Sequence record: NC_107013.1
From: a phage
Length of the DNA stretch: 41,265 nt
Direction: 5' to 3' (one strand)
Part shown: positions 3,253 through 34,801 of the stretch, in pieces
How positions within the stretch are numbered: position 1 is the stretch's first letter
Layout of the letters: every line of letters begins with the position of its first letter
Program-made: the position numbers and the translations under genes
Notes under the pieces: generated by a model
The model's database searches: none
What the model was told of the DNA's origin: nothing
Seen by the model: the letters and a program-made list of their open reading frames with translations, nothing else

Positions 3253-4499
3253 GTATTCAGCTATCCGCACCGCAGGCACTGTTCCTGAATTGCGATAACA
3301 AATACAAAGCCTATGTCGGCGGCTTCGGCAGCGGAAAGACATTTGTTGGCTGCCTTGACCTGCTTACGTTTATGCTCAAGCATCCAGGTACGCGCCTGGG
3401 TTACTTCGGCCCGACATACCCGGCTATCCGTGACATCTTCTACCCGACATTTGAGGAAGCCGCTAACCTGCTCGGCCTCGATGTGCTGGTTAAATCTGGC
3501 GACAAAGAAGTCGTGGTTACTCGCGGTAAGACGGTGCTCGGTACAGTTATCTGCCGTTCTATGGATAACCCAGGCTCGATAGTCGGCTTCAAAATCGCTG
3601 CTGCGGTCGTGGATGAGCTTGATGTATTGAGCCGTGAGAAAGCTGAGCTGGCGTGGAACAAAATAGTCGCCCGTATGCGTCTGGTTATCCCCGGCGTAAC
3701 TAACCACATCTCTGTCACCACGACACCGGAAGGGTTCAAGTTCGTCTACGCCAAGTTCAAAGAGAACCCGACGCCGAGTTACTCGATGGTGCAGGCTTCT
3801 ACACACGAGAACGCGCGATTCCTGCCGCCTGACTACATTAGCTCACTGACCGAGACTTACCCCGCGCAACTGATTAACGCGTACCTGAACGGTGAGTTCG
3901 TTAACCTGACATCCGGCAGCGTGTATTATGCGTATGACCGTCGCAAGCACCGCAGCAAAGAGACAATTCAACCGGGCGATACACTGTACATCGGGCAGGA
4001 CTTCAACGTTACGAAGAACGCCAGCGCCGTGTATGTGCAACGTAAAGACGGCTGGCACGCGGTGGCAGAACTGAAAGGTCTGTTTGATACGCCGGACACC
4101 GTGCGTGTAATTACTGAGAAGTGGAAGTCGCAGGGCCACCGCATAGTCGTTTACCCGGACGCCAGCGGCAAGAACCGCAAGACCAACTCGGCGTCAATCT
4201 CAGATATTGCGTTACTCCAGCAGGCCGGTTTCGATGTTCGCGCTAAATCCGCCAACCCTCCGGTTAAAGACCGTGTTTTAGCCGTGAATACCGCACTGGA
4301 AAAAGGTAAGCTGTGGGTTAATGACCACTTATGCCCTGAGATAGCGAAGACGCTGGAGCAGCAGGCATACGATGATAACGGAGAGCCAGCTAAAGACGGC
4401 ATCATTGACCATATGGCGGATGCTCTCGGCTATCCTGTAGTTTACGAGATGCCGGTGGTTAAACCAGTAATCAACATCCCGGTGACTTTCGCACTTTAA
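3249..4499 (+). CDS. terL: Terminase large subunit
   Basis: Walker A-like VGGFGSGKT near N-terminus; 416 aa; followed by portal. Confidence 0.8.
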   Translation: MSIQLSAPQALFLNCDNKYKAYVGGFGSGKTFVGCLDLLTFMLKHPGTRLGYFGPTYPAIRDIFYPTFEEAANLLGLDVLVKSGDKEVVVTRGKTVLGTVICRSMDNPGSIVGFKIAAAVVDELDVLSREKAELAWNKIVARMRLVIPGVTNHISVTTTPEGFKFVYAKFKENPTPSYSMVQASTHENARFLPPDYISSLTETYPAQLINAYLNGEFVNLTSGSVYYAYDRRKHRSKETIQPGDTLYIGQDFNVTKNASAVYVQRKDGWHAVAELKGLFDTPDTVRVITEKWKSQGHRIVVYPDASGKNRKTNSASISDIALLQQAGFDVRAKSANPPVKDRVLAVNTALEKGKLWVNDHLCPEIAKTLEQQAYDDNGEPAKDGIIDHMADALGYPVVYEMPVVKPVINIPVTFAL

Positions 4500-23500: not shown

Positions 23501-26455
23501 ATGTCAAGCGGATGCGGTGACGTTTTAAGCCTGGCGGATTTACAAACCGCCAAGAAACATCAGATTTTCGAGGCCGAGGTTATCACTGGCAAATCCGGCG
23601 GTGTCGCCGGTGGTGCCGATATTGATTACGCGACAAATCAGGTTACTGGACAGACGCAGAAGACACTCCCCGCCGTGTTGCGTGACGCAGGTTTTAAACT
23701 GGCAGATTTTGATTTCACGTCAGGCGGTACACTATCCGCTAACGACCGAAACACCGCAGTTTTGTGGCCGTCGTCCTCTGGCGGTGACGGGGATTGGTAC
23801 TATTGGTTGGGTGCTCTACCAAAAATTATCCCAGCGTCATCTTCTCCGCAGTCCACCGGTGGCGTGGCAGATGGGGCGTGGCAGCCTGTCGGGTCGGTCA
23901 TACTGCGGCAGCAAATATCTGATGTAAACGGCGCAATTCTGTACCCAGATTTACATGTGGCGCGATGGAAGGACGAATACGACCCGCGCGCATGGGGCGC
24001 CGTGGGCGACGGCGTAACTGATGATACTCAATCTATTTTTAATGTATTAGCAGCTTCCCCCAACAATTGGATTATAGACGGCAGGGGTTTGACTTATAAA
24101 GTTTCCCAATTACCTGACATTAGTAAATTTAAGAATGCTGCATTCGTTTACGAGCGCGTAGCCGGGCAACCGCTTACTTATGTAGCTGATGGCTTCTTTA
24201 ACGGCTCACTAACTAAGGTGACGGATACCCCGTTCTACAACGCATGGACGCAGGATAAAACTTTCGTCTACGACCATGTTATTTACGCCCCGTTTATGGC
24301 GGGCGAACGACATGGTGTTCAAAACTTACATGTAGCTTGGGTTCGCTCTGGAGACGACGGGCAGACTTGGTCAATGCCTGAGTGGTTGACTCCAATCCAT
24401 GCTGACTATAATGCTAGTGTTTCTACGGACAGAGTTAACTACCACTGCATGAGCATGGGTACGTGCGGCAACCGATTATATGCAGTTATAGAAACCCGCT
24501 ACTTATCTAATATGCGGATGAAGAAGGCAGAACTTTGGTCACGCCCAATGCCGTATTTTAGACACCCAACCGGCGGAATAACTATTAGTTCTGGCTCCAC
24601 TACTGCTACCATTGTCATAGAAAATCATGGCCTAAAAGCAGGAGATGCGGTTAACTTCTCTAATACATCGGCAACTGGCGTATCGGGTAATATGACGGTT
24701 TCGTCTATAATTAACCGAAATACGTTCACTGTTACGCTCTCAAGACCGGCGAGTTCCACCATAAACAATGCGGGTGTTACCTGGAACTTCGCAACGCGAT
24801 TCTGGGACAGCCCGTGGGAAATTACCGAATTGCCTGGGGTAGCATACTCCACTAACGCTGATTTGTGTGTCACGGAGACACATAGTTTTGCGGTTATAGA
24901 TGATGTTAACTACACTATCGCTGTCGGCTATCACAACGGCGATGTGTCCCCTAGGCGTCTCGGTGTCTTGTATTTTAGTAACGTGTATGACAATCCTGGC
25001 GTATTCGTTCGTCGCACTGTCGCTCAGGCATACGCTGATAACGCTTCTGAGCCGTGCGTGAAAAGCTATGGTGGTGTGTTATACCTTACCACACGCGGCA
25101 CATTACCTACTTCCCCTGGCTCTACACTGGCGATGAGCACCGATTCTGGGCAAAACTGGAGCTACTTGCGATTTCCGAACAATGTACATCACTCCAATCT
25201 TCCGTTCGCTAAAGTAGGTGACTATCTCTACATCTTTGGTACAGAACGTGCCTTTGGTGAGTGGGAAGGTGGCGAGCAGGACAGCCGCTATGAAGGTTCG
25301 TATCCGAGGACCTTTATGTGCAAAGTTAATGTGTCGTCATGGCCTTCATCTTTAGATGATGTTCAGTGGTTTAATATTACCGACCAAATATACCAGGGTC
25401 ATATCGTTAACTCTGCTGTCGGCGTCGGCTCGGTCTGTGTTAAAGATGGCTGGTTGTACTATATCTTTGGTGGGGAAGACTTCTTCTCTCCCTGGAGCAT
25501 AGGGGATAACAGTGCGAAGTTATGGTACAAACATGATGGGCATCCGGCTGACTTATATAGCTACCGGATAAAGATTGAAGACCACCCGTACGTATCACGT
25601 GATTTCAAATACGGAGCAACTCCTAACCGTACAATACCTGTCGCCATGGGGGTAGATGGTGTACGCCATGTAGAAGCACCTTTAACGTTTGACAATGATG
25701 TAAGCGTGTACTCCCTGCATGTAACGGGGCTGGAATACGATGGTACACAACAGTCTGCCGTGCGCGCACGGTTTGATGGTGATTACGGGCTGATTTCAAA
25801 AACAGTCCCCACTAAAACCCCATCGAGTCAAAGACTGATAGTTAGCGGTGGTGATGGTGCATCCAGTTCCGATGGTGCGTTGCTGCAACTGTACGGGGCA
25901 AACCATGCAAAGCCTAACATGGCTATTATGTATGCGTCAGGAGGCTTCTACTCATACAACAATTTTCTTCCTTACTTAGACTCGCAAGTGTCTTTAGGTT
26001 CGGCAGGTAATAGGTGGACTACGGTGTACGCGACCACCGGTACGATAAACACGTCTGATGGTACACTTAAGACGAACAAAGAGGAAATTGAGGGACAACT
26101 CCTTACCGCATGGGAGGATATACATGTAATATCTTTTAAGTGGCTTGAAAGCCTAGCAATCAAGGGTGACACTGCAAGGATACACTTCGGTGTGATAGCC
26201 CAAGATGTGCGAGACATCTTGGTCAACCATGGGCTTATGGAGAAAGATTCTACCGATTGTAAATATGCTTTCTTGTGCTACGACTCAATTGAAGCTGCGT
26301 ATGATATTGATGAAGATGGCCAGACTGTACAAGTATCCCCTCCCGGCGGCAGATGGGGGGTTAGGGCGGACCAGATGTTCTTCATAGAGATTGCCTATCA
26401 GCGTAAGAAGATGCGCGAGTTCGAGAAGAGGCTGGCAGCACTAGAAGATAAATAA
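23501..26455 (+). CDS. Tailspike: endo-N-acetylneuraminidase (endosialidase)-like with C-terminal intramolecular chaperone (peptidase S74) domain
   Basis: Two Asp-box motifs (SGDDGQTW, STDSGQNW); many segments matching my recollection of K1F endosialidase; C-terminal TSDGTLKTNK and ARIHFGVIAQ typical of S74 domains. Confidence 0.8.
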   Translation: MSSGCGDVLSLADLQTAKKHQIFEAEVITGKSGGVAGGADIDYATNQVTGQTQKTLPAVLRDAGFKLADFDFTSGGTLSANDRNTAVLWPSSSGGDGDWYYWLGALPKIIPASSSPQSTGGVADGAWQPVGSVILRQQISDVNGAILYPDLHVARWKDEYDPRAWGAVGDGVTDDTQSIFNVLAASPNNWIIDGRGLTYKVSQLPDISKFKNAAFVYERVAGQPLTYVADGFFNGSLTKVTDTPFYNAWTQDKTFVYDHVIYAPFMAGERHGVQNLHVAWVRSGDDGQTWSMPEWLTPIHADYNASVSTDRVNYHCMSMGTCGNRLYAVIETRYLSNMRMKKAELWSRPMPYFRHPTGGITISSGSTTATIVIENHGLKAGDAVNFSNTSATGVSGNMTVSSIINRNTFTVTLSRPASSTINNAGVTWNFATRFWDSPWEITELPGVAYSTNADLCVTETHSFAVIDDVNYTIAVGYHNGDVSPRRLGVLYFSNVYDNPGVFVRRTVAQAYADNASEPCVKSYGGVLYLTTRGTLPTSPGSTLAMSTDSGQNWSYLRFPNNVHHSNLPFAKVGDYLYIFGTERAFGEWEGGEQDSRYEGSYPRTFMCKVNVSSWPSSLDDVQWFNITDQIYQGHIVNSAVGVGSVCVKDGWLYYIFGGEDFFSPWSIGDNSAKLWYKHDGHPADLYSYRIKIEDHPYVSRDFKYGATPNRTIPVAMGVDGVRHVEAPLTFDNDVSVYSLHVTGLEYDGTQQSAVRARFDGDYGLISKTVPTKTPSSQRLIVSGGDGASSSDGALLQLYGANHAKPNMAIMYASGGFYSYNNFLPYLDSQVSLGSAGNRWTTVYATTGTINTSDGTLKTNKEEIEGQLLTAWEDIHVISFKWLESLAIKGDTARIHFGVIAQDVRDILVNHGLMEKDSTDCKYAFLCYDSIEAAYDIDEDGQTVQVSPPGGRWGVRADQMFFIEIAYQRKKMREFEKRLAALEDK

Positions 26456-26484: not shown

Positions 26485-26621
26485 TACTCTTCTGATAGCT
26501 TCTCCAGTACAAACGCCAGTTGTGCATTAGCGGCATCCCTCTGTTGTCGTAGTCGTAGAACCTCCTCTTCGAGTTCCTTGATACGTTTTTGCAATGCGGG
26601 AATCGGGGCTATGATGTTCAT
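26484..26621 (-). CDS. Hypothetical small predicted-helical protein (45 aa)
   Basis: ATGA coupling to the helicase stop; below the ORF-track cut-off. Confidence 0.3.
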   Translation of the reverse strand: MNIIAPIPALQKRIKELEEEVLRLRQQRDAANAQLAFVLEKLSEE

Positions 26622-28042
26622 TTCTTACCTCTTCTCTTCATATAATTAAGCAATTCTTCCTGGACCGATTTCTTCTCGTCTGTACGCGCGGCAACAACCT
26701 CGTCAAGAGTGTCTTTAGCGACTATGTGATAAAGGAACACCGGGCGCTCGTGGCCAGCCTGTTTCTGGCGGACCGGGCCTATACGCTCGACAACCTGCAA
26801 ATAGTGCTCAAGATTCCAGCCTTGCGAAATAAACGCCAGATGATGTCCGCCGTCCTGTAAATTCAAACCATGGCCGGCTGACGCGGGGTGCACGCATAGG
26901 ATTTCGATTTCGCCACGGTTCCACGCTTCCATCTGCTTATTGCCCTTCGCGCCTTTTGCAAAAGCCTGCGCCTGCGGGAAGCGCTTGAGGATGCGCTCCA
27001 GTTCGTGCTTGAACTGATAGGCGACTAGTAACGGCGCACCCTGCAACTCCTCGGCAATGGACTCCAGCGCGTCCAGTTTCGTGTCGTGTACTTTCTCCCA
27101 GTCTTTGGTTGCTTCGCCGTCTGGCCCCGATACATATACGGCACCGGACGCAATTTGCAAGCACTTCGACGTCTTCGCCGCAGCGTTAGCAGCTTCCACT
27201 TCCCCGCTCTCAAGTTCCGCGAATAACTTCTCCTCCATATCGATGTACGCCTGACGTGCTTTCTTCGGCAGGTCGATTTCAACCGTAACAATAATCGGCG
27301 CTTCACACCCGAACCACTCAGCGGCGTCAATAGTGAGGCTGATGTCCTTCATCTTCTGGTGAATTTCATTATCCGCGCCAGGACGGGCGTGGTATTCGCG
27401 CGCCATCGCCGACTTTCCTTTCTGTACCGAGTTAAACCAGCGGTCGGTGAATGCCGTGTACGACGACCCCAGGCGCTCACCCGCGTCGATAAACCAGTTC
27501 TGACCCCACAAGTCTTTGAGGCCGTTTGGCGAGGGCGTGCCGGTAAGGTTTATAAAACGCTTAACCTTTCCAAACGCCACCTTACTGAGCGCCTTTGCCC
27601 GCTTGCTACCACCCGAACGGCTGCGGAATGATTTCAGCTTCGTGCTCTCATCGGCAACGATAACCGTAAAAGGCCAGTCATCTTTGCCGTAGTAGTCGAT
27701 CAGCCACTCGATAACTTCGTAGTTCGTGCACACCACGTTAGCATCTGACTCCAGCGCCGCGATGCGGCGCTTCTCTGAACCTGTCGCGTCTACGACACGC
27801 AGACATGGGAAATTCCATTTCTCTTGCTCTGCCGGCCATGTGCCGGACGCAACACGTAAAGGAGCCAGAATTAACACCCGGTCGCCATCATTAAGTTGGC
27901 CGTTGCGGAACAGTCGGTTTAAGACCCACAGTACGCTGCCAGTCTTCCCGGCACCCATACTCGCCCAAATATTACAGCGATGGTGTTGCAACATGAACGA
28001 GGTCATGAGCTTCTGGTACTCGCGCCTTTGAAACTTACTCAT
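26618..28042 (-). CDS. SNF2/DEAD-like superfamily 2 helicase
   Basis: Walker A SMGAGKTGS; DExx box VIVADEST; helicase C-terminal motifs. Confidence 0.8.
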   Translation of the reverse strand: MSKFQRREYQKLMTSFMLQHHRCNIWASMGAGKTGSVLWVLNRLFRNGQLNDGDRVLILAPLRVASGTWPAEQEKWNFPCLRVVDATGSEKRRIAALESDANVVCTNYEVIEWLIDYYGKDDWPFTVIVADESTKLKSFRSRSGGSKRAKALSKVAFGKVKRFINLTGTPSPNGLKDLWGQNWFIDAGERLGSSYTAFTDRWFNSVQKGKSAMAREYHARPGADNEIHQKMKDISLTIDAAEWFGCEAPIIVTVEIDLPKKARQAYIDMEEKLFAELESGEVEAANAAAKTSKCLQIASGAVYVSGPDGEATKDWEKVHDTKLDALESIAEELQGAPLLVAYQFKHELERILKRFPQAQAFAKGAKGNKQMEAWNRGEIEILCVHPASAGHGLNLQDGGHHLAFISQGWNLEHYLQVVERIGPVRQKQAGHERPVFLYHIVAKDTLDEVVAARTDEKKSVQEELLNYMKRRGKK

Positions 28043-28859
28043 TTATGGTCCCCATAAACGCCTTTATAAATTCGGCGGCTACTTGCGGGACGATGGCATT
28101 GCCGTAACCGCGCAATCGTCCCACTCTTGCGGGTATCCCATTAGCCAGCGGGAATGCGCCGGGTTCAACCGGCCGGAACTTTCCATCACGGCATCCGAGC
28201 CAGTCAGCATCTGACCAGAAGCCGTGGTGCGGGTTGGTTGACTCGCTTTCAATCCCTGCTCTGTTGAGTAGTCCAGCCTGTCGAATGTTCTGTCCCTCCC
28301 GTCCGTGCGAATCACTGTCTCTCCGCTCCCTCTGAAGTCGTTCGCTGTCGGTGTAGGCCAGTTCGTGCGCGCCAAAGAAGAGTCGTTCTCTTTTGTGCGG
28401 TGCGCCGACGCTACAAGCTGGGAGTACAGCAAACCCGACGGCGTAGTCTTCTCCTTCCAGGTGAGCTTGTAAATCGCACATCCACGATTTTGCAATTGCT
28501 GCTGCAACCTGCTCCCCAAAGATGACCGGAGGGCGGCACTCGCTGATGATGTCGAGGAAGACCGGCGCGAGGTGTCTCGGGTCGAACTGTCCGAGTTGTT
28601 TTCCTGCCGTGCTAAACGGTTGGCAAGGCGGGCTTCCCGTCCAGAGAGGCGTATCCTCCGAAACTCCCGCAAGTCTGAGCGCGAGAGGCCAGCCGCCGAT
28701 ACCAGCGAAAAAATGACACTGGGTGAACCCGTCAAGGTCTTCTGGCTTAACTTCGGTAATGCTTCTTTCATCTACAACTCCAAAAGGTATGTGACCATGT
28801 TTTATTAATTCACGCAGCCACGCGGCTGCGCCTTTATCCCATTCGTTGTAATAGTTCAT
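28035..28859 (-). CDS. DNA (cytosine-5)-methyltransferase
   Basis: Motif I FFAGIGG, motif IV PPCQPFS; other C5-MTase blocks. Confidence 0.8.
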
Positions 28860-29047
28860 TTCGCCACCAGCACCAGCTCTTTACGCCCGAACGCCGTAAC
28901 GTTACCCGTTACATCTTCGATAACCAGTTTACCGTTCGACTCGACGAACACCGTATCAACGGCAACAGGTTGACGTGTCTTAACGTTGAAAATCATGTCA
29001 CCCGGTACGATGTCACGTGCTGGTTTGCGGTCATATTCGTGTTTCAT
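28856..29047 (-). CDS. Hypothetical protein (63 aa)
   Basis: AAGGA RBS; ATGA coupling to the methyltransferase. Confidence 0.5.
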   Translation of the reverse strand: MKHEYDRKPARDIVPGDMIFNVKTRQPVAVDTVFVESNGKLVIEDVTGNVTAFGRKELVLVAK

Positions 29048-29077
29048 TTCTCAATTCCTTATATTGTTGGTGTAGGA

Positions 29078-29362
29078 CTAACTATAATAGCTAGCTATTA
29101 GGTCGTCAACCTGTTTAAACGAACCAACGACAAAAACATTTGCACCGCGTTTACGCATACGCTCATGCTCTCGTAACTGGTGCGGGTCAGGCTTCGTGTT
29201 TTCGTCTTTCTTAACCTCGATAAACCAGACGATGCCGCCGGGGAGAATTACCAGTAGGTCTGGAGCGCCGGAACGCCCCTCATAAGACAGTTTACGAACG
29301 AGGCCGCCAATGGCCTCGAATCGCTCTTTCGCGTATTTCTGAATCTTGCCTTCCGGGGTCAT
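29078..29362 (-). CDS. VRR-NUC domain nuclease (PD-(D/E)xK)
   Basis: Motif PDLLVI...IEVK; ATG at 29362. Confidence 0.6.
   Translation of the reverse strand: MTPEGKIQKYAKERFEAIGGLVRKLSYEGRSGAPDLLVILPGGIVWFIEVKKDENTKPDPHQLREHERMRKRGANVFVVGSFKQVDDLIASYYS
29081..29109 (-). promoter_or_regulatory. Class I early promoter TTGACG-N17-TATAGT with palindromic operator AATAGCTAGCTATT in the spacer
   Basis: About 20-bp shared core with promoters at 32635-32663 and 34772-34801. Confidence 0.5.
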
Positions 29363-29511
29363 GAACGCAGAACCCAAGTTATAAACGCTCCGCCGAGAAT
29401 GGCAACGCCAACAAACTTAAGGAGCAGGCTGTAGCAGAACATCGCAACTATTCCCGCACCGAGTAACAGTGTGAGCATGGTTACTATCGTCCAAAATACA
29501 AACATTGTCAT
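29359..29511 (-). CDS. Hypothetical small membrane protein (50 aa)
   Basis: Hydrophobic ORF with ATGA coupling to VRR-NUC start. Confidence 0.3.
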   Translation of the reverse strand: MTMFVFWTIVTMLTLLLGAGIVAMFCYSLLLKFVGVAILGGAFITWVLRS

Positions 29512-32634: not shown

Positions 32635-32663
32635 ACTATAATAGCTAACTATTCAGGTGTCAA
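32635..32663 (-). promoter_or_regulatory. Class I early promoter TTGACA-N17-TATAGT with AATAG-N4-CTATT operator
   Basis: Core AACTATAATAGCTAACTATT identical to 34772-34791. Confidence 0.5.
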
Positions 32664-34771: not shown

Positions 34772-34801
34772 ACTATAATAGCTAACTATTCATGTTGTCA
34801 A
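34772..34801 (-). promoter_or_regulatory. Class I early promoter with AATAG-N4-CTATT operator (18-bp spacer variant)
   Basis: Core AACTATAATAGCTAACTATT identical to 32636-32655. Confidence 0.5.

Follow-up and report, generated by a model that had tools for sequence, protein, structure and literature searches.

The monomeric C5-cytosine methyltransferases (C5-MTases) M.HhaI and M.HaeIII carry a target-recognition domain (TRD) between motif VIII and motifs IX and X of one chain, and certain other C5-MTases divide these elements between two polypeptides. M.EcoHK31I of Escherichia coli HK31, which acts on YGGCCR, is a natural heterodimer (Lee, Kam & Shaw 1995, as described in PMC2836561 and PMC3404938) whose β chain is encoded out of frame inside the gene of the α chain, with motifs I to VIII and X on α and motif IX on β (PMC2836561, PMC3404938). 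When all starts of β are silenced, the α gene confers no methylation, and adding β back restores it (PMC2836561). The β chain arises by independent initiation (PMC2836561), its first 42 residues are dispensable in vitro, and internal methionine codons can start it (PMC2836561, PMC3404938). M.AquI of Agmenellum quadruplicatum is also an α/β enzyme, its two polypeptides being split within the variable region (PMC3404938). In this report we consider a locus of the phage sequence record NC_107013.1, a stretch of 41,265 nucleotides (nt; hereafter the window) that represents a K1G-like Kagunavirus genome (Guernseyvirinae), where an open reading frame (ORF) for a C5-MTase, here ORF A, has a second one, ORF B, wholly within it in the +1 frame (Table 1). 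Both frames show conservation and selection at the protein level, and the locus probably encodes an orphan C5-MTase whose two polypeptides are translated from one stretch of DNA in different frames, B being most likely the DNA-recognition subunit that is missing from A.

By analogy, the phage locus appears to match the architecture of M.EcoHK31I feature for feature, the dispensable leader included. The second chain lies entirely inside the first gene and in another frame (28079-28771 within 28035-28859), A has motifs I to VIII and X, and B would have motif IX, as suggested by a weak (2.4 bits) collinear alignment with M.HhaI and by the gain in score of a chimera described below. Moreover, the dispensable N-terminus and the alternative starts of β have their counterpart in an unconstrained leader and a variable start of B. 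There are also differences: the published description of M.EcoHK31I has the TRD in α, whereas here the only conserved sequence between the motifs, built around WPTP, is written in the β frame, and M.EcoHK31I is the methylase of the EcoHK31I system, whereas the phage gene is an orphan. The EcoHK31I system includes a cognate restriction endonuclease. M.AquI resembles the phage locus in having two polypeptides, but it is split end to end, with motifs I to VIII on α and IX to X on β, so that there is no nesting and motif X goes with β and not with α. Regarding M.HhaI and M.HaeIII, the catalytic motifs align with them and the DNA keeps their order of motif VIII, TRD, IX and X, but the TRD and motif IX would here reside on a separate chain in a frame shifted by +1.

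Judged from its sequence, ORF A is a true C5-MTase. It matches the Pfam family PF00145 with 64.6 bits (cut-off 22, E = 1.3e-17), over profile positions 65-164 only, it matches PHROG 363, "DNA methyltransferase", over its full length (E = 1.9e-87), and its alignment with M.HhaI (E = 3e-12) spans motifs I, IV to VIII and X. The motifs are FFAGIGG (I), PPCQPFS with the catalytic Cys79 (IV), FGEQV (VI), PHKRER (VIII) and YGNAIVPQV (X). Motifs I (residues 50-56, nt 28692-28712) and IV (residues 77-83, nt 28611-28631), from which a reading of the sequence alone had recognized the methyltransferase, are indeed present and are invariant among 147 homologues, and FGEQV is a family-wide variant with EQV in place of the ENV of M.HhaI and M.HaeIII. 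The segment YYNEWDK at the very start of A (residues 1-13, nt 28821-28859) closely resembles motif II of M.HhaI (YSNEWDK), yet it precedes motif I, another difference from the monomeric enzymes; Y4, N5, E6 and D8 are near-invariant in the 147 homologues, implying a motif order that appears permuted to II-I-IV. Between motifs VIII and X, ORF A has neither a TRD nor motif IX on the same polypeptide, and a low-complexity linker serves there as filler. The C-terminal 62 residues of A have no match in Pfam. The homologues of A have a median length of 309 residues. The α chain of M.EcoHK31I also has 309, a figure that we treat as a lead and not as evidence.

ORF B consists of a leader of about 70 residues that is unconstrained, a conserved helix and hairpin, a WPTP module and a helix resembling motif IX. 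The WPTP module (WPTPxxxD), which is the presumed target-recognition region, occurs in homologues as 1 to about 10 repeats. To place these parts on a known enzyme, we used a chimera of A1-166, B128-222 and A245-274, which is a device of the analysis and not a claimed product. It is collinear with M.HhaI, where KLHPRECARVMGYPDSY aligns with the motif IX-like segment of B and FGNSVVINV aligns with YGNAIVPQV of A, and with the C-terminus of B in the chimera the PF00145 score rises from the 64.6 bits of A to 74.3 bits. The C-terminus of B resembles motif IX of the C5-MTases, and the counterpart of the large domain would be A, that of the small domain B.

The evidence that both frames code comes from the entropies at the three codon positions (H1, H2 and H3) of a codon alignment of 147 sequences from 147 distinct loci. 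In A1-103 and A253-274, H3 is about 1.4-1.6, well above H1 and H2, which is the pattern of DNA that codes for A only. In A104-164 and A208-252, many third positions are frozen (25% and 44% of codons, respectively, have H3 < 0.5), a sign of dual coding; where A overlaps B75-127, A-frame H3 falls below 0.3 at many columns. At the sites of A208-252 where A varies, a high H1 goes with values of H2 and H3 close to 0, a signature of wobble in the B frame, and at A240 and A243 the variation is confined to the first position of A, i.e., the wobble position of B, which marks a constraint from B on top of that from A. Across the linker (A165-207), all three A positions are near maximal entropy (H1 = 1.74, H2 = 1.58, H3 = 1.63) with frequent indels, and A is unconstrained, whereas in the B frame the WPTP columns of this DNA have low H1 and H2 with high H3, as expected of B-only coding. 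The regime alternates between A-only, dual and B-only along the gene, and therefore both frames are under selection as proteins. The first 72 residues of B stand apart, since their B-frame H2 (1.41) is far above H1 and H3 and they are not constrained as protein.

The openness of the frame and the signals for internal initiation point in the same direction. Over A codons 30-125, the +1 frame is free of stops in 120 of 146 loci, against 42% expected from permutation of synonymous codons in the same region, whereas the +2 frame has a mean of 4.9 stops and is open in a single locus of the 146. For ATG codons of the B frame at A residues 30, 36 and 40, the share with a Shine-Dalgarno match is 28%, 74% and 60%, respectively, compared with a background of 9%, i.e., B-frame starts with this signal are enriched 3- to 8-fold. 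Thus, the coding status of B is supported by three independent tests, namely the open frame, the codon-position entropy and the internal start.

The nested layout is also conserved over large distances. With peptide patterns of the B family, 160 loci were fetched, 80 from viral contigs and 80 from bacterial genomes, which gave 163 loci with matches. In 159 of these, a single frame runs without a break through the N- and C-terminal parts of A (motif I to motif X), with B in the +1 frame; the other four have interrupted or frame-shifted copies and come from the insect-symbiont or insect-associated bacteria Arsenophonus, the Plautia stali symbiont and Photorhabdus, and from the plant pathogen Erwinia tracheiphila. 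B was not seen apart from an A gene in any of the 163 loci, and a single-chain relative with the B module in frame was found neither among them nor among the best 120 or 150 matches. The layout, which holds at about 35-45% protein identity across phyla, also occurs in phages N15, epsilon15 and PMG1, in Rhodobacter phage RcMrWorf and in Acidobacteria phage Tunturi_1; the last is the weakest phage match and keeps it nonetheless, and its annotators picked the B frame as the "DNA methyltransferase". When N15, epsilon15 and PMG1 are compared with the window, A matches their methylases at the N-terminus (motifs I to VIII) and at the C-terminus, and B aligns, in the +1 frame, exactly over the middle part of A, which is of low complexity and variable length. 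In distant homologues from E. coli prophages, the most conserved DNA is that of A208-252 and B179-222 (28104-28238).

Regarding the size of the family, a tblastn search with the C-terminal 133 residues of B found matches in 253 phage records, those in N15 and epsilon15 falling inside annotated cytosine methylase genes, and a profile of the B family collected 21,513 cluster representatives (E ≤ 1e-3) among 1.84 billion proteins. N15 gp58 and the cytosine methylase of epsilon15 are homologous to the gene of the window at 40-43% identity and have the same nested +1 ORF. ORF31 and ORF30 of phage K1G, named "putative C-specific methylase" and "putative Mte8-like protein", are direct orthologues, with B 100% identical over the C-terminal 133 residues and the DNA around A and B about 95% identical. 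In the GenBank records of the K1G group, B appears as "putative Mte8-like protein" or as a second "DNA methyltransferase", and it is left out of other records. The records of K1G, N15 and epsilon15 differ from the present interpretation in that they list one gene or two unexplained overlapping genes and state no function or subunit relationship.

Some loci show further variations on this layout. In L021, L093, L047, L043 and the protein P0357, the B frame runs beyond the end of A and fuses B to a downstream domain. This domain is a methylase of the MT-A70 type (DPPW) in L021 and one of the Dam type (NPPY) in P0357, and in L093 it is PD-(D/E)XK/Cas4-like and has a cluster of cysteines at its C-terminus. 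The fusions to methyltransferase domains (L021, P0357) would fit a methylation-related role of B. In the prophage of E. coli ECCTRSRTH03 (L176, 2863-4032), the methylase homologue lies directly after an MT-A70 methyltransferase gene, and the annotation of the NCBI pipeline splits it into a pair of putative pseudogene fragments, labelled "missing C-terminus" and "missing N-terminus". The interval that separates the annotated fragments (locus positions 3464-3570) falls in the middle of the gene, between the N- and C-terminal parts.

Among close relatives, the Escherichia phage ULINTec2 is 95.3% identical over 27900-29500, and K1G, K1H and related Kagunavirus genomes are about 94-95% identical. 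Both ORFs are intact in ten close Kagunavirus relatives, save for one record, itself unverified, that has an internal stop in A. Within A, variation in this group is greatest in the linker, where 22 of 26 substitutions are non-synonymous in A. The A chains of Kagunavirus relatives at 70-90% identity, K1ind2 and K1ind3 among them, are 274, 305, 309, 314, 319, 340 and about 354 residues long, and these differences are indels confined to the linker, i.e., gain or loss in the WPTP region of B. Such indels could represent rapid change of target specificity.

Alternative explanations of the locus start from the same observations. The simplest is that of an ordinary single-gene orphan methylase, with an inner ORF that is open by chance and conserved through the overlapping MTase codons. 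Many annotations do list one gene here, and over the first 72 residues of B the apparent conservation is a mere by-product of A. This reading is nevertheless very improbable, since B has a classic coding signature, with the WPTP and GxPARLTA motifs, where the linker of A is unconstrained, since variation in A229-250 is confined to A first positions, which are wobble positions of B, and since the +1 frame is open where the +2 frame is not and the layout persists across phyla. It is effectively refuted by the layout in 159 of 163 loci, the openness of the +1 frame and the codon-position entropy. Still less credible is a cryptic restriction-modification pair, with the VRR-NUC-like nuclease as the restriction part. 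Its ORF, with a putative nuclease fold, lies two genes upstream on the same strand, but it matches resolvase and endonuclease PHROGs typical of phage replication modules and sits between the DNA polymerase and the helicase, and the methylase homologues of N15, epsilon15, PMG1 and an E. coli prophage have no such neighbor. The nuclease was rejected as a restriction partner on the grounds of these matches and of the homologues without the neighbor.

Two other alternatives accept that the B frame is selected. Programmed ribosomal frameshifting could make a single-chain MTase if ribosomes slipped by +1 behind motif VIII to enter the B frame and possibly by -1 to return before motif X. The DNA does read, from motifs I to VIII through WPTP to IX and X, like an ordinary C5-MTase with its middle part shifted by +1, and the chimera is collinear with M.HhaI. 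However, B75-127 overprints motifs VI to VIII of A, and motif IX of B overprints the conserved A229-250; no single pass of a ribosome includes all the selected residues, because at either end of B those of one frame share their DNA with those of the other. In addition, a +1 site would have to lie around A155-170, where no heptamer is invariant and the entropy exceeds 0.5 in at least one position of each codon. B also possesses an ATG and a Shine-Dalgarno sequence of its own, and the β chain of M.EcoHK31I is independently initiated. We regard this explanation as improbable, and frameshifting as the sole route as unlikely; a minor frameshift product beside A and B is possible. Somewhat less improbable, albeit still unlikely, is that B is translated and selected independently of the methylase, as a DNA-binding regulator or an anti-defense protein, and that A alone is a complete orphan methylase with a short TRD. 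A retains motifs I to VIII and X and its own conserved segment at the C-terminus, no database domain matches B, repeat numbers between 1 and about 10 are not typical of a classical TRD, and in some loci B reads through into unrelated downstream domains. Set against this are the constant company of A and B in 163 loci, the match of the C-terminus of B to motif IX in sequence and in its position relative to VIII and X, the lack of any conserved residues in A where a TRD is expected, and the two read-through fusions to other DNA methyltransferase domains; the precedent of M.EcoHK31I also points the opposite way.

The two-subunit explanation, which we prefer, has points against it as well. The translation of B in this phage and its binding to A are deduced from sequence, and A alone might still be active. 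B has no match in Pfam or NCBIfam, and among PDB sequences the B-family profile gave one chance-level match only (LptG, E = 0.61); the motif IX alignment, taken by itself, is the weak one mentioned above. AlphaFold2 models are too poor to judge domain identity: that of A, from 49 close homologues, has a predicted local distance difference test (pLDDT) score of 44, and that of B residues 70-230, from 96 homologues, has a mean of 60, with only the N-terminal helix and hairpin (B75-127) confident at 80-87. The start position of B is not fixed, because 26 of 146 loci have a stop in its upstream leader. Finally, the kinship to M.EcoHK31I is drawn from architecture and not from sequence comparison, the name M.EcoHK31I is absent among the homologue matches listed, and the published enzyme, as said, has its TRD in α, not in β.

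If the locus works as a two-subunit enzyme, transcription would begin at a palindrome-bearing promoter (29109..29081) or further upstream. Translation of A would be coupled to that of the small upstream ORF via their ATGA overlap, and B would be initiated independently at 28771, from GGAG-N6-ATG inside A. The two chains would then associate into the active enzyme, as α and β do in M.EcoHK31I, with B supplying the small domain and hence the sequence specificity or DNA recognition. In this way, replicating phage DNA may be methylated without a cognate endonuclease, which would blunt host restriction or mark the DNA.

The sequence-only reading had proposed an anti-restriction or epigenetic methylase with no adjacent restriction endonuclease. 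Its orphan status is supported: the neighbors are the 63-residue ORF, the VRR-NUC/resolvase-like ORF and the SNF2 helicase, the small ORFs have no nuclease match, and no restriction endonuclease is annotated among the 68 coding sequences of ULINTec2, the closest full genome. ORF B had escaped that reading, and the view of an ordinary single-polypeptide MTase is incomplete because A has no conserved target-recognition region and no motif IX, both of which would be in the B frame. The methylase homologues are located in replication or early modules of phages and prophages, and all that a search of plasmids found were phage-plasmids and prophages, none in a restriction-modification context. Because of this location and the lack of a restriction endonuclease, self-protective or epigenetic methylation would be the reasonable default. 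Regarding the target motif, palindrome statistics of the genome identified no C-containing site that is notably avoided or enriched.

All genes of the locus are on the minus strand, in the replication module, in the order DNA polymerase A, small ORFs, VRR-NUC-like ORF, 63-residue ORF, methyltransferase and SNF2 helicase (Table 1). The span first given to the methylase, 28035-29362, covers three genes, of which the methyltransferase proper takes 28035-28859, and 29362 is the alternative ATG of the VRR-NUC-like ORF. The overlap of 8 nt claimed between methylase and helicase is exact (ATGAGTAA, the TAA at 28035-28037 against the helicase ATG). The VRR-NUC nuclease is found two genes upstream, as had been said, whereas its name is less certain: it scores 18.6 bits against Pfam VRR_NUC (PF08774; E = 0.002), below the family cut-off of 23.8, and matches strongly PHROG 93, "endonuclease" (E = 1e-33), and PHROG 5702, "Holliday junction resolvase" (E = 1e-20). 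The promoter-operator that had been placed inside the 3' end of this gene holds as a sequence feature.

Table 1. Features of the methyltransferase locus in the window, with positions counted from its first letter
Feature	Position	Strand	Basis or remark
ORF A (α-like chain), 274 aa, putative C5-cytosine methyltransferase large domain	28035..28859	minus	Pfam, PHROG, M.HhaI alignment
ORF B (β-like chain), 230 aa, wholly within ORF A, +1 frame	28079..28771	minus	ORF listing; homologues in same layout
Predicted start of B: GGAG (28781-28778), 6-nt spacer, ATG (28771-28769)	28769..28784	minus	In-frame TAG directly upstream (28774-28772)
B residues 75-127: SASAAL..SRLQ helix and GxxxYKLTWK..TPSG..LxAS..RT hairpin	28391..28549	minus	Overprints A motifs VI-VIII; dual-coding
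ORF A residues 165-207, low-complexity linker	28239..28367	minus	A frame unconstrained, variable length; same DNA as the WPTPTAND module of B
WPTPTAND module of B	28337-28360	minus	Presumed target-recognition region; within A linker
Second dual-coding stretch, A 208-252 over B 179-222, including motif IX-like helix (28121-28168)	28104..28238	minus	Entropy, M.HhaI
SNF2-family helicase	26618..28042	minus	Start overlaps stop of ORF A by 8 nt
63-aa ORF, function unassigned (phrog_4879)	28856..29047	minus	Stop overlaps ORF A start (ATGA)
VRR-NUC-like nuclease or Holliday-junction-resolvase ORF, 99 aa	29078..29377	minus	Alternative ATG 29362; Pfam, PHROG
Sigma-70-like promoter TTGACG-17-TATAGT, spacer with perfect palindrome ATAGCTAGCTAT	29109..29081	minus	Inside last codons of VRR-NUC ORF

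The promoter at 29109..29081 has two further near-identical copies on the minus strand, at 32663..32635 and about 34800..34772, which makes three in the window. All follow TTGAC(G/A)-N5-AATAG(C/T)TAGCTAT-TATAGT, and each lies just upstream of a minus-strand gene. The element at the methylase locus is likely the promoter for the small ORF, A and B, and the helicase, and the palindrome in its spacer looks like a shared operator of some regulator.

Elsewhere in the window, a tailspike of 984 residues (23501-26455, plus strand), annotated in relatives as an endo-N-acetylneuraminidase (K1 capsule sialidase), marks the phage as specific for the K1 capsule. In addition, GATC is nearly missing from the whole window (1-41265), with 5 sites against about 140 expected under a maximal-order Markov model (z = -11.4), and CTAG is depleted, with 21 against 64 expected. 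These depletions suggest strong selection against Dam/MboI-type sites or MutH targets.

A nested β-type gene was known before from one characterized enzyme, and the overlap was already annotated, unexplained, in K1G-group records. Our literature search found no paper describing the nested gene in phages, and neither the breadth of the family nor the placement of its specificity region in the nested frame seems to have been reported in the literature searched. We advance, tentatively and as something that may well turn out otherwise, a broader proposal: the "orphan" C5-MTases of phages and prophages could form a very large class of obligate two-chain enzymes (at least 21,000 clusters at 50% identity, from phages of Proteobacteria to those of Acidobacteria), in which the specificity module, i.e., a variable WPTP array and motif IX, is written out of frame in the catalytic gene. 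If so, annotation would mostly have overlooked this module, listing a single gene, two genes without explanation or fragments of a pseudogene. Moreover, the textbook assignment of the TRD to the α chain of M.EcoHK31I would need revision.

The locus is a clean natural case of long same-strand dual coding in double-stranded DNA phages, with about 690 nt in which the two frames are alternately constrained, and it is useful for studying the evolution of overlapping genes and the ways in which gene callers overlook them. Should B be the specificity subunit, methylome prediction, specificity assignment in the style of REBASE and heterologous expression would fail or mislead when they start from the annotated MTase ORF alone. 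For the family, gain and loss of repeats in the nested frame would retune target specificity, while the catalytic frame tolerates the same changes as a linker. For the phage itself, a methylation or anti-restriction phenotype would have to be assigned to the gene pair and not to a single gene.

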